A stretch of DNA of 22,302 nucleotides. Source: a virus. Position numbers and translations under genes: made by a program. The first letter of the stretch is position 1. Every line of letters starts with the position of its first letter. The stretch is from UHGV virus genome UHGV-1135478; one strand, 5' to 3'. Below are positions 2 through 22,302 of the stretch, piece by piece. The notes below the pieces were generated by a model. It did no database searches, was not told where the DNA came from, and was given only the letters and a program-made list of their open reading frames with translations.

Positions 2-436
2 CAGCAATATTCCCCTAAAGACGTTGTATGTAGCTGGAATGGTATTGCCATTGAAGGCTTTGCCCCAGACTCATTCTTGCGTCTACAGAGAACATCACCA
101 CTTGTGACACCAGTTGTTGGTGCAGGTGGTCAGGTTGCTCTGACAAGAAATGCAGACAAGACAGGTACTATTGAGATTGAGCTAATGCAGACTTCTCTCT
201 CTAACCAGATGCTTTCTGCAATTCAAGCTAAACAAGACAATATGGAACTTGAAGTAGATATCTCTTCTAACTTCGTAATCTACGACCCATCAGGCTCTGT
301 TCTGGCAACTGGTATTAATGCTTGGTTGCAGGAGTTGCCACAGATTGAACTTGGTCGTGACCAGAACTCTAAAACTTGGATTTTTGGTTGTGAGAAGCTA
401 GACTATACTTCTACAATTCCAGCGTCAAGTGTTTAA
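2..436 (+). CDS. Putative tail tube / major tail protein, 3' portion (5' end upstream of window)
   Basis: Frame of the 77..436 ORF is open back to the window edge (no stop in nt 2-76), stop TAA 434-436. Lies directly upstream of the chaperone pair and tape measure gene and is followed by a strong intrinsic terminator. Function is from synteny only. Confidence 0.4.
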   Translation, partial: QQYSPKDVVCSWNGIAIEGFAPDSFLRLQRTSPLVTPVVGAGGQVALTRNADKTGTIEIELMQTSLSNQMLSAIQAKQDNMELEVDISSNFVIYDPSGSVLATGINAWLQELPQIELGRDQNSKTWIFGCEKLDYTSTIPASSV

Positions 437-448
437 TAAATCCTATAA

Positions 449-480
449 GGGGGAGACTTTAAAAGGTCTTCCCCTTTTTT
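449..480 (+). terminator. Rho-independent terminator after putative tail tube gene
   Basis: GGGGGAGAC (449-457) pairs with GTCTTCCCC (466-474), 9 bp with one G-U and an 8-nt loop, followed by TTTTTTGTTTCTTTT. Confidence 0.65.
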
Positions 481-509
481 GTTTCTTTTAAAAGTATTAA
501 GGAATCACA

Positions 510-908
510 ATGAAAACAGAATTTAGAGTAATTAATGGTAAGAAAGTAAATATCGTTCTGCTTGGGGCAAGAGATGGTATTAAGATGTCTATGAAGTTGG
601 GTAAAATTGTTGTTCCAACCTTTGCACAGATGCTATCAAGTCTGACTGACAAGGATAAGAAGGAAGCTCCAATGGTTCCATTTAAAGAACTTGTTGAAGC
701 TTGTTTTGACAGAATTGAAGAGATTAACCTTGAAGAAATGGCAACTCTGTTATTTCAAGGGGCAACTGTTGATGACTTCCCACTTAATATTGATACGTAC
801 TTCCAAGCAAACTATGGTGAGTTCATTGATTACTTAGCATTTGCGCTGGAGGCAAACTTCGGAAGTTTTTTCGAAGCAAGCATTTTCAAAAGCCTAACTT
901 CTCAGTAA
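510..908 (+). CDS. Tail assembly chaperone (gpG-like)
   Basis: 132-aa ORF directly upstream of the tape measure gene; RBS AAGGA 7 nt before the ATG; slippery heptamer near its 3' end. Confidence 0.55.
   Translation: MKTEFRVINGKKVNIVLLGARDGIKMSMKLGKIVVPTFAQMLSSLTDKDKKEAPMVPFKELVEACFDRIEEINLEEMATLLFQGATVDDFPLNIDTYFQANYGEFIDYLAFALEANFGSFFEASIFKSLTSQ
866..872 (+). other. Candidate -1 programmed frameshift slippery site T_TTT_TTC
   Basis: Heptamer TTTTTTC sits in X_XXY_YYZ register in the 510..908 frame (aGT TTT TTC = S F F). The -1 frame is open from 830 to 1150 and contains the 911..1150 ORF. Confidence 0.5.
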
Positions 909-910
909 AC

Positions 911-1149
911 ATGGGCAACACTCTACAGACACCACTAACTGATGCTGCTGTAGAGGCAACCTATGAAGAAGCAGACGAGATGAAATTTGTGCTTGCTATT
1001 TATGGTATGGAAGGGTGTAAAGAAACACTTGACCAACTCTTTGCTATGACATTCTCTGATTTATTATCATTGAGACAATTTCTTGAAATTCAGAGGTCGT
1101 ATAAAGAGGAAATTGCTTACAACGAACTTAGAAGAGCAGGAAAAATGTA

Positions 1150-1150
<1 letters not shown>
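911..1150 (+). CDS. Tail assembly chaperone -1 frame extension (gpGT/T-like), probably made only as a frameshift fusion with 510..~871
   Basis: ORF is in the -1 frame relative to 510..908. No Shine-Dalgarno before ATG 911. Its stop overlaps the tape measure start (TAATG). Confidence 0.5.
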
Positions 1151-9166
<8,016 letters not shown>

Positions 9167-19704: not shown

Positions 19705-19733
19705 AAGGTACTCTTCCCTGAGCACCTTGTCAA
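19705..19733 (-). promoter_or_regulatory. Candidate promoter P3 (TTGACA-N17-TACCTT; weak -10)
   Basis: - strand -35 TTGACA at 19728-19733, overlapping the HNH stop; -10 TACCTT at 19705-19710; shares GTTGACAAG context with P2. Confidence 0.3.
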
Positions 19734-20266
19734 CTTAGTTTTGCAAACTCTCCGTGGAGTTTAATAGCAGCTTCACAGTAAGCTTTATGGGCTTCTTCAG
19801 GTGTGTCAAACATACCAAGATGATAGTTTTTACCTTGTAAACGTATCATTGCTCGAAACCTTTTATTTATCTTCTGTACACCTTTTGGCAACCCAGATTG
19901 GGACTTTCTTGACCGATTGCAAGAGTTTTGTGAAGCTGTACAAACCCTTAAATTCAAGTACCTATTGTCCCAACCGTCCCCATTCTTATGGTCAACCTGT
20001 AAGGTTTTATCAGGCAAATATCCATCCACATACAAGATAACTAAACGATTTGCTTGGTAACTCCTTCCATCAATCAGCAACTGAACTGACTTGTGTCCAT
20101 CAGTATTTGTTCTGTAGTTTCCAGCCCTCTTACCTCCAAATCTAGAGTTAAAATTTGCATTACCTTCTCTAAACTTCCAAGTAAAGACCCCTATTTCGGG
20201 GTCGTAGTCCAATAGCTCCTTAAGACGAATTTCTGTAATCATTTCAACACCATCAATGTACCTCAT
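19730..20266 (-). CDS. Free-standing HNH homing endonuclease with C-terminal AP2 DNA-binding domain
   Basis: HNH motif …LQVDHKNGDGWDNRYLNLRVCTASQN…; AP2-like segment …GVQKINKRFRAMIRLQGKNYHLGMFDTPEEAHKAYCEAAIKLHGEF…. Start set to ATG 20264-20266 (RBS AAGAG), overlapping the last 14 nt of the polymerase. Confidence 0.85.
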   Translation of the reverse strand: MRYIDGVEMITEIRLKELLDYDPEIGVFTWKFREGNANFNSRFGGKRAGNYRTNTDGHKSVQLLIDGRSYQANRLVILYVDGYLPDKTLQVDHKNGDGWDNRYLNLRVCTASQNSCNRSRKSQSGLPKGVQKINKRFRAMIRLQGKNYHLGMFDTPEEAHKAYCEAAIKLHGEFAKLS

Positions 20267-20809
20267 ACCAGCTCTTACCAACCTTACCTGTGCCAGTTAC
20301 AAGCGTCTCACTCTTCAAACCTAAATTCTTAGATGCCTGACCATACATCCAGTCAGTTATGGCTTTAACTTCTTGAGTCATACTTTCTGGGCATTCCCAA
20401 CTGTTCTCATCGTGGTATGCCAGCAAAAGTCTAGCACCAATTGCTGGTTTCCGTCCATTTAATTTTGTCAACCCTTCTTCACATGCTCTTCTACAAGCAA
20501 GGTTAATTGCCTCGTTCTGAATCTGACTTTCCGAACCCATGAGCAAATAATTCAATAACTTATGTGGAGATTTACACCACAACCAAGCTCCAGCAACCTT
20601 TACAAAACCCCCTTTAGAGATTGCAGCAGTCTTACCAAACACCTCTTCAAGTGCCTTTTTAGTTGCTTTGTAGTCAGCTTCCAAGTCATCTAGCAACTTC
20701 TTAATTTTAGGGAGGCGTACAAAGTAAGTTTGCTTAGTTAAAGCACCTTCTTCGGTTGTTGATGCTTTAATCGTCTTAGCAAACTTCTCATCACCTGCAC
20801 CGAACAATA
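20253..20809 (-). CDS. DNA polymerase, family A (T7 gp5 / Pol I type), exon 2 (C-terminal)
   Basis: Begins within motif B (…LFGAGDEKFAKT…, cf. T7 …FLYGAGDEKIG…); motif C YHDE; C-terminal …GKSWYEVH typical of family A. Confidence 0.85.
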
Positions 20810-21120
20810 CATCTGGTCAATACACTCGCAAGGTGTACCAGTTCTCTTATGAACTTCTCCGCATTTCTACGGAGTGTCGGACTATATCACGTAGTAGTAA
20901 TACTACCGTTGCACTTGGGAATGGTCATTAGCTTACCACCCTACTCTACTCAGTTCATACATTAAGTATGCTTTTCGATAGTCTCTGAACGTTTCTCTGT
21001 TAGGAATCTCTATAGTTATGTTATTTGCTTTAGGAGTCCTAACAGAGACTTCGCTGCTGATTACCATATCTTTACAGACTTAGGCTTCCAGCAATTCACA
21101 ACGTTTTACATGCGCCACTG
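20810..21120 (-). ncRNA. Group I self-splicing intron (311 nt, no ORF) in the DNA polymerase gene
   Basis: On the - strand: R element GTTCAGAGACTA (20979-20990) and S element GATATAGTCC (20879-20888) form the P7 core. Intron 5' region GCGCAT pairs with exon-1 end ATGCGT (P1, U-G at splice site). Intron ends in G. Stops in all frames. Confidence 0.8.
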
Positions 21121-22302
21121 ACGCATAAATGCCATTCTTAGCTTTCTTACGACCTTTGCTAATCTCATGAAGAAGATTCTCATCCTGAGTAGCTCGACAA
21201 GTCAAGATGTCCTGCTCATCGTTCAAGCTAAAGTAGATACTGTTCAGTGTATGTGCATCAGTCCCTGAATAGACAACGTACAGGTCATTCTCAGAGTCAT
21301 AGCGAAGGTACTTATCAATCTCTGGGTTGAGGTACTCATCAAAGTGTTTGCAGTAATAGCGTCCATCTTCTTGACGAATGAACTCAATCTCTTCTTTACC
21401 TTGTGTTACCGCTTTGGTGAAGTCTTTGTCACCCATAAAGTTACAAAGAAGAACTAGCTGGGCTGAGTTCATATCAACTGAAACAATGTTAGTCCCTTCT
21501 TCACAAGTCCACACCTCCCGCATAGGTGCTCCATAGACAGCAGCACCAGATGGTACGTTTACAATACCATATTGTGTCATACGCCCAGTTGAAGTACCAA
21601 ACACCATTGCACCAGCACTAAGGCGACCATCAGGACGAATCTGGTTCAACCAACCTTTTTCATCATCCTTTGAGTTCTCAATAGTTCTGCGTCTGTGCAT
21701 CAAAGTATAGTATTTAGCAATCTTCTGTCCAAGCTCACCTTCAATCGTATCATAAGATGATTCAGTAAGTTTTGGCGAAGTACGGATTAAGCAAGGCTCA
21801 AGCAAATCTGTGTACTTCTTCACAGACCAGTTATGCTCAATGTACTGGACACCTTCATGTTCAACATAACTCAAACCACACCGCTCAACCATTTCCTGCC
21901 ACTTAGGATGTTTTGTAATCATCTTTTTATTGTCTTTGAAACGACAAACTTTGACAGGACGACCATCTGAGTCTTTCTTGTAGTTCCAGTCATCTGGAAT
22001 CCAACCAACTGATTTCAAGTAGTCTTTAACAACTGCTACCTGAGTCATACGAGAAACTTCGAACTCAATTGGTGTATATGGTGCATCAATCAAACCTGTG
22101 TAGCGACTTGACTCAAGTTCAAAGTGGTTAACGACGTGGCTGTTATAGTACTTCACAGTTTTGACTGTTTTTACTGGTTTCCAGTCTTTGCATTTCTTAC
22201 CAATCTTTGCGTTCAACTCATTGCAAATTGCACGAGCATCCTTCATTGCTACAAAGCCTTCCTTGTACTCTTCACCAGTTACAGTGTTGGTTGGTGTATA
22301 GC
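21121..22302 (-). CDS. DNA polymerase, family A, exon 1 (N-terminal/middle part; 5' end beyond window)
   Basis: Frame open to window edge; contains motif-A-like …VSVDMNSAQLVLL… and the start of motif B …RKKAKNGIYA at the exon end. Predicted spliced junction …KNGIYA-LLFGAGDEK…. Confidence 0.85.

Follow-up and report, generated by a model that had tools for sequence, protein, structure and literature searches.

Near the start of the DNA analyzed here, from UHGV virus genome UHGV-1135478, immediately upstream of a tape measure protein gene, two short open reading frames (ORFs) lie at 510..908 and 911..1150 of the plus strand, and the question is whether they encode two proteins or a single one read in two ways. 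The analyzed stretch of 22,302 nucleotides (nt), hereafter called the window, belongs to Felixounavirus. Matches to its first 3.4 kb come from 297 phage records, almost exclusively Felix O1-like ones (Felixounavirus and other Ounavirinae), the best being Salmonella phage Mushroom (99.1%); between positions 510 and 1150 the window and Mushroom are identical. A preliminary description, made from the DNA letters, had proposed that the two ORFs are joined by a programmed -1 ribosomal frameshift into a tail assembly chaperone of the G/GT type. We consider it very likely that they are indeed one recoded gene of a Felix O1-like myophage, expressed as G and GT through a -1 shift. This interpretation, by which the locus would belong to the G/GT (phage P2 E/E+E') class, finds support both in the sequence itself and in its comparison with relatives. 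The frameshift is already known, being annotated for exactly this sequence in GenBank and RefSeq.

The overlap and its slippery site

The ORF at 510..908 encodes 132 amino acids and the one at 911..1150 encodes 79, the latter lying exactly in the -1 frame of the former, as the preliminary description had stated. This frame is already open from position 830 (the nearest upstream stop codon is TGA at 827-829), and the overlap amounts to 79 nt with the stop codon of the first ORF counted. Within the overlap, the proposed shift site T_TTT_TTC occupies positions 866..872 of the plus strand in the X_XXY_YYZ register claimed for it, the zero-frame codons being AGT (864-866), TTT (867-869), and TTC (870-872). 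Heptamers of the form U_UU.U_UU.Y constitute an efficient -1 class in Escherichia coli and exceed background even without stimulators (PMC4066793). The last base, C or T, is the sole variation of the heptamer among the relatives described below, all of which remain in this class.

In-register XXXYYYZ heptamers (Y = A or T) occur 17 times in the 6,920 codon positions of the long ORFs of the window, and 0.064 of them are expected by chance in the 26-codon overlap. The heptamer at 866-872 is followed by an open -1 frame of 92 codons, the only long one, compared with 0-12 codons for the other 16 heptamers. The other three Phe-Phe (FF) pairs encoded in the ORFs of the window are all written TTC TTT, which is non-slippery.

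A -1 shift at the heptamer would yield a fusion of 213 amino acids, join(510..872,872..1150), with precisely the reading predicted beforehand, ...ANFGSFF-RSKHFQKPNFSVN-MGNTLQ.... Its C-terminal part, the T segment (872..1150, plus strand), comprises 92 codons and a stop (RSKHFQKPNFSVN MGNTLQ...GKM) and includes a tryptic peptide, HFQKPNFSVNMGNTLQTPLTDAAVEATYEEADEMK, encoded in the -1 frame upstream of Met-911. The predicted fusion is residue-for-residue identical to AJF40599.1 (GenBank) and YP_009600435.1 (RefSeq), the "tape measure chaperone / tail assembly chaperone" of phage Mushroom, deposited there as the joined coding sequence (CDS) CPT_Mushroom69. Fusions made by a -1 shift at the heptamer and at nine alternative points of the overlap (end of the last zero-frame codon at 863-905) were each looked up by exact sequence; the heptamer junction alone matched a deposited protein, and none of the nine alternatives did.

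According to the proposed mechanism, most ribosomes would translate 510-908 and release the 132-residue G-type chaperone. A minority would slip back by one base on U_UUU_UUC (866-872), where the tRNA-Phe molecules in the P and A sites would re-pair from UUU-UUC to UUU-UUU, and would continue from CGA (872-874) in the -1 frame to TAA at 1148-1150. The slipped product would be a GT-type fusion sharing its N-terminus with G and extended by the 92 residues of T. Judging by lambda G/GT and P2 E/E+E', G and GT may both coat the tape measure protein encoded downstream and the T part may recruit the tube protein, with G and GT presumably absent from the finished virion.

Conservation among related loci and the start of the downstream ORF

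To the 58 related loci contribute 47 contigs from IMG/VR, eight GenBank representatives, Mushroom, and two Avunavirus-type phages; together they span Ounavirinae, Vequintavirinae, Myoalterovirus, and metagenomic contigs, and the identity of their G proteins to that of the window goes down to about 25%. The representatives are Suspvirus (mistaenkt), the unclassified pEC-M719-6WT.1, Mooglevirus (Mordin), Hafnia phage Zyzzx, and Kolesnikvirus (phiEa104), with Alteromonas phage PT11-V22 and the Vequintavirinae PBES02, A7_1, Av-05, and TH18 as further ones besides the IMG/VR contigs. The GenBank relatives were found by tblastn without an FF filter. An in-register T_TTT_TTC or T_TTT_TTT is present at the aligned Phe-Phe pair in all 58 loci, a count in which many loci are close relatives rather than independent events and in which the 47 IMG/VR loci, fetched with a peptide pattern that requires FF, test the choice of codons and not the retention of FF. 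Behind the heptamer, each of these 58 loci has an open -1 frame of 80-126 codons, whose end is between a few and about 80 nt away from the tape measure start. FF counts among nine invariant protein columns. In approximately ten lineages FF is invariably preceded by a codon with a final T (AGT, TGT, or TCT) and begins with TTT, a choice with a probability of about 0.41 per lineage under the codon usage of this phage.

The peptide of the -1 frame is conserved as well, directly from the shift site. Across all 92 amino acids from the first post-shift residue, the T frames of phiEa104 and the window share 51% identity (E-value 3e-30). A basic linker just after the shift recurs between subfamilies in the -1 frame (RSKHFQKP, HERRFRKP, RQERFRDH), whereas the zero-frame peptide differs. 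The T segment of the Alteromonas phage showed no similarity to that of the window by BLASTP, and by eye only a short KETL...L..MT motif is shared.

The most conserved nucleotide block of the G-T locus includes this site. It covers 863..891 of the plus strand, i.e., the heptamer with 3 nt before and 19 nt after it, and 28 of its 29 positions do not vary among six representatives of several Ounavirinae genera, the G proteins of which share 40-81% identity with that of the window. The G-T region as a whole is 34% invariant in the same six sequences, and the next longest invariant run is 5 nt. Both frames of the block encode conserved peptides, SFFEASIFK and KFFRSKHFQK. Dual coding in two constrained frames may explain the invariance; it is the simpler reason, inseparable here from a cis-acting role.

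The T-frame ATG at 911..913 (plus strand) stands 2 nt past the stop codon of G, TAA at 906-908. The preliminary description had noted that it has no ribosome-binding site, and no Shine-Dalgarno core is present in the 20 nt upstream of it (AGCCTAACTTCTCAGTAAAC). Its position is not conserved: it reads ATA in the 98%-identical Felixounavirus contig L029 (IMGVR_UViG_3300045988_004167), and the first T-frame ATG is at codon 17-18 in pEC-M719 and Mooglevirus (a displacement of 4-5 codons), at codon 37 in Hafnia phage Zyzzx, and at codon 57 in Kolesnikvirus. In the distant clades it is mostly found at codons 35-67, with contig L053 (codon 16) as an exception, and in phiEa104 the earliest possible start of any kind (ATG, GTG, or TTG) is a TTG at codon 55. 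ATG 911 is therefore probably not a required start, since it lacks a Shine-Dalgarno sequence and is not conserved.

These data bear on the foremost alternative, by which G and T are two separate proteins, the 79-residue T being initiated at ATG 911 by termination-reinitiation, and the overlap and heptamer have no recoding role. The ATG does exist at a suitable distance from the stop codon, most Felixounavirus, Suspvirus, and Mooglevirus loci have an ATG at or near this position, and two CDSs are what most GenBank records list. However, most of the more distant relatives have no ATG until codons 37-67, and yet their T frame is open and conserved right from the heptamer; and separate initiation leaves unexplained both the in-register heptamer of all 58 loci and the peak of conservation at the heptamer. 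We therefore rate this alternative as quite improbable. As judged from the compared sequences, an independent start of the downstream ORF is dispensable, and independent initiation at ATG 911 cannot be the conserved mechanism, although reinitiation there may add some free T in this particular phage.

Elements flanking the heptamer and the remaining alternatives

Upstream of the heptamer, with a spacer of 13 nt, lies the Shine-Dalgarno-like sequence GGAGG (848..852, plus strand), a candidate stimulator by virtue of its rarity and its recurrence at equal spacing. GGAGG occurs only eight times in the interior coding sequence of the window (19,179 nt), corresponding to P of about 0.005 per 12-nt interval. 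With the same 13-nt spacer it is also found in Mooglevirus, pEC-M719, contig L058, and Avunavirus, and a marine clade has AAGGAG or AGGGAG with an 11-nt spacer, written in other codons (Lys/Arg-Glu vs. Leu-Glu-Ala). Stimulation of the dnaX type involves a Shine-Dalgarno-like sequence 6-17 nt upstream of the heptamer, a range in which GGAGG at 848-852 falls, together with a stable hairpin or pseudoknot 5-9 nt downstream, where none was found. GGAGG probably raises the frequency of the shift by pairing with the anti-Shine-Dalgarno sequence of 16S rRNA, as in dnaX.

Several points weigh against the frameshift interpretation, among them the composition of the sample described above. The Shine-Dalgarno-like element is absent in Hafnia phage Zyzzx, Kolesnikvirus, PBES02, A7_1, and contig L055. 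The predicted fold of 873-960 is no better than that of shuffled sequences (z = -1.1), with 873-891 predicted to be unpaired, and RNAalifold applied to eight Ounavirinae sequences gave -1.07 kcal/mol and no covariation. The ATG located 2 nt past the stop codon of G permits some separate 79-residue T to be made by termination-reinitiation. Finally, no experimental support, either proteomic (protein-level) or from reporters, was found in the literature for Felix O1-like or rV5-like phages.

The preliminary description had suggested a search for a downstream stem-loop or pseudoknot, and this search, by the fold of 873-960 and by RNAalifold, revealed no stimulatory structure. The sole solid downstream hairpin (921-955) begins 49 nt past the heptamer. 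A long-range pairing of 874-888 with 980-996 (fold of 840-1000, z = -2.2) was considered and rejected, as its 3' partner is absent in Hafnia phage Zyzzx and phiEa104 despite the invariant 5' arm. The shift thus probably needs no downstream RNA structure.

A more speculative possibility concerns the invariant block. The upstream Shine-Dalgarno-like element at fixed spacing and a linear 3' element of 19 nt (873-891) might together form a cassette free of structure, in which the 3' element would act on the ribosome as sequence and not as a hairpin. We regard this as unlikely; if true, the linear element at 873-891 would represent a type of bacterial -1 stimulator not yet described.

The region just before the heptamer contains a weak hairpin (846-862; six pairs, two of them G-U), which is followed by AAG and the T6 run and attains a terminator-like score. 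As an element of slippage or attenuation it was rejected, the possible stems being out of register in other genera, and it probably arises incidentally from the Glu-x-Asn-Phe codons.

Transcriptional slippage is the second alternative: RNA polymerase would insert an extra U within the T6 run, joining the G and T frames in a fraction of the mRNAs, from which the same protein would result. The site is a homopolymer (T6 in the window, T7 in the marine clade), it is preceded by the terminator-like hairpin, and hairpins ahead of such runs can promote slippage, as known from work on insertion sequence (IS) elements. E. coli genes avoid U7 and A7, possibly because of slippage (PMC4066793). However, efficient slippage of bacterial RNA polymerase takes a run of about 8-9 or more, compared with which six or seven are short. 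The run has six T in the window and never exceeds seven in the 58 loci, where it always keeps the exact X_XXY_YYZ register that slippage does not need. The upstream hairpin is out of register in Hafnia phage Zyzzx and Kolesnikvirus, and the Shine-Dalgarno-like element at dnaX-like spacing suits a ribosomal mechanism. On balance, slippage is a very improbable explanation of this locus.

That no functional recoding takes place, the heptamer and overlap being by-products of the conserved Phe-Phe motif and of compact gene packing, is hardly credible at all: the invariance of FF in the protein implies that part of the nucleotide conservation could be a protein constraint, but the codon choice xxT TTT TTY is fixed in every lineage, the -1 frame remains open at all loci for many more codons than the 0-12 behind the remaining in-register heptamers of the window, conservation of the T-frame peptide sets in right at the shift site, and a chance overlap would not be credible given the comparative data.

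The tail assembly module, its annotation, and related systems

The preliminary description had referred to a fiber module, a label that proved incorrect. The genes of the window are ordered as in the tail tube and tape measure assembly module of contractile-tailed phages, with the tail tube gene (to 436) followed by the gene for the 132-residue protein, the 79-codon ORF, the tape measure gene, and then Dit-like, hub, and baseplate genes; all of the module features detailed here are on the plus strand. The tail tube gene is represented by its 3' part (2..436), its 5' end being cut off by the edge of the window (PHROG 280 "virion structural protein", 2.8e-46; Pfam KPP10_Orf10, 29.9 bits); in phages Mushroom, Meda, and Si3 it is located 3' of the tail sheath gene, and annotated relatives show the same order of tube, chaperone, and tape measure genes behind the sheath gene. 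The product of 510..908 under standard decoding is a G-type tail assembly (tape measure) chaperone and belongs to a recognized sequence family of such chaperones in Pfam (PF21822 Phage_TAC_15, 71.5 bits with a cut-off of 22 bits) and PHROG (1613, 5.6e-48, with further matches to 3840 and 1688); it is named "tape measure chaperone" in Mushroom and Meda. The -1 frame ORF of 79 amino acids (911..1150) matches PHROG 4963 "tail assembly chaperone" (2.8e-55), and the tape measure protein gene extends over 1150..3378 (PHROG 4036, 1533 bits; Pfam TMP_3, 62.5 bits). The pair is therefore positioned between the tail tube and tape measure genes, as the G/GT class requires. The G/GT-type arrangement upstream of a tape measure gene that had been called conserved is thus backed at the sequence level by the gene order, the 58 loci, and the deposited identical joined CDS. 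A profile search of the PDB with G gave chance-level matches only and no solved relative by sequence; the single-sequence AlphaFold2 model of G (mean predicted local distance difference test score, pLDDT, of 43.5) was too poor to search with.

Two further features concern the expression of the module. Between the tail tube and chaperone genes lies a strong intrinsic terminator (447-486, plus strand) with a stem of 13 bp, including six GC pairs, followed by TTTTGTTTCT; it is annotated as such in phages Meda and Mordin, and probably reduces the transcripts of the chaperone and tape measure genes relative to those of the sheath and tube. At TAATG (1148-1152), the T-frame stop codon overlaps the ATG of the tape measure gene, and AGGA is found 9 nt upstream. 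The tape measure protein may thus be translated in coupling with GT as well as from independent initiation.

The fusion is annotated unevenly in public records. A two-piece joined CDS exists in Mushroom, Meda (Meda_064, "Tape measure chaperone frameshift product"), and Mordin (gp121), and a frameshift is mentioned for Moogle and Mijalis (PMC4319497, PMC5543628), whereas most other GenBank records contain two separate CDSs; the genome announcement of Mushroom makes no mention of a frameshift. The feature in these five phages is the same as that of the window, and with Mushroom there is no sequence difference in either the DNA of 510-1150 or the 213-residue product. Their annotations are predictions, given without an analysis of the slip site, a stimulator, or experimental support. 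In records of Kolesnikvirus, Myoalterovirus, and Vequintavirinae the joined CDS is missing and the ORF after the chaperone gene is a "hypothetical protein" or chaperone of 37-80 amino acids that starts from an internal ATG (1331-1444 in L007, 1325-1444 in L008, 1343-1525 in L009, 1331-1510 in L011, 1338-1553 in L060, and 1311-1553 in L061). These ORFs correspond to the part after the first internal ATG of a -1 frame that is open and conserved from T_TTT_TTY, 50-70 codons upstream. The name "head closure protein", given to the chaperone or to the 79-residue ORF in some records (SUT_S820, SUT_S920, VpaE1_ev035), conflicts with family and position. The 90%-identity cluster of G also includes the Staphylococcus hyicus protein WP_252560994.1, encoded on a 47.6-kb contig, which most likely represents phage contamination of the S. 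hyicus assembly.

A close parallel among characterized systems is E/E+E' of the myophage P2, in which the -1 shift occurs at TTTTTTG without a hairpin (PMC3091744). The likeness includes the location between tube and tape measure genes, a T6-based heptamer, the -1 direction, the absence of a downstream hairpin, and a short and a long product made from one start; no sequence similarity was seen or tested for. The P2 locus differs in the last base of the heptamer (G, compared with C or T here) and in product size (91/142 amino acids, compared with 132/213), and an upstream Shine-Dalgarno-like element is present here.

Lambda G/GT shares the gene position and the logic, GT arising from an infrequent -1 shift close to the end of G. 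Lambda is a siphophage, its slippery site is G_GGA_AAG, and its chaperone belongs to a protein family other than the Phage_TAC_15 found here. Lambda G/GT was reportedly studied by Levin et al. in 1993 and by Xu, Hendrix, and Duda in 2004, 2013, and 2014, and the 2004 work of the latter is said to have defined the class as a G/GT-type tail assembly chaperone with a programmed -1 frameshift. The roles of lambda G/GT are the coating of the tape measure protein and the recruitment of the tube protein (PMC5009743), and the same roles are presumed here.

In E. coli dnaX, the Shine-Dalgarno-like AGGGAG lies 10-14 nt upstream of the heptamer, a strong downstream hairpin is needed, and the frameshift product is the shorter one. 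The locus of the window resembles it in having an upstream element, GGAGG at a spacing of 13 nt, and AGGGAG itself occurs in some relatives. In contrast to dnaX, no hairpin is predicted here and the frameshift product is the longer one.

At the other end of the window, on the minus strand, a group I intron (RF00028, Rfam 62.3 bits; match 20857-21161, intron 20810-21120) lies in motif B of a family A DNA polymerase gene. In a manual splice model, 311 nt are removed (21120..20810), AUGCGU/GCGCAU forms P1 with a U.G pair at the 5' splice site, and the intron ends in G. Removal of the intron gives one continuous ORF with the polymerase motif B RKKAKNGIYALLFGAGDEK (...RKKAKNGIYALLFGAGDEKF...), and Pfam DNA_pol_A scores 58.8 bits for the spliced product vs. 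28.3 bits, below the cut-off, for exon 2 alone and no match for exon 1 alone. The identical Mushroom record has two CDSs, "DNA polymerase" and "DNA polymerase subunit", with no intron annotated, and a literature search found no description of this intron. An ORF for a homing endonuclease with HNH and AP2 domains (19730-20281, minus strand) comes directly behind polymerase exon 2, the end of which it overlaps (20253-20281). This ORF is free-standing, outside the intron, and may either be the partner that mobilizes the intron or have invaded independently.

Frameshifts of the G/GT type are textbook knowledge for long-tailed phages, and the significance of the present case is small beyond correct annotation. 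For the latter, the conserved T_TTT_TTY site would permit a uniform correction of the records that list two or truncated ORFs, among them most of those for Felixounavirus and records of Kolesnikvirus, Vequintavirinae, and Myoalterovirus. The family also provides a natural series for the tuning of -1 frameshifting by Shine-Dalgarno-like sequences without downstream structure, since it includes clades with and without the upstream element around a heptamer that is always T_TTT_TTC or T_TTT_TTT.

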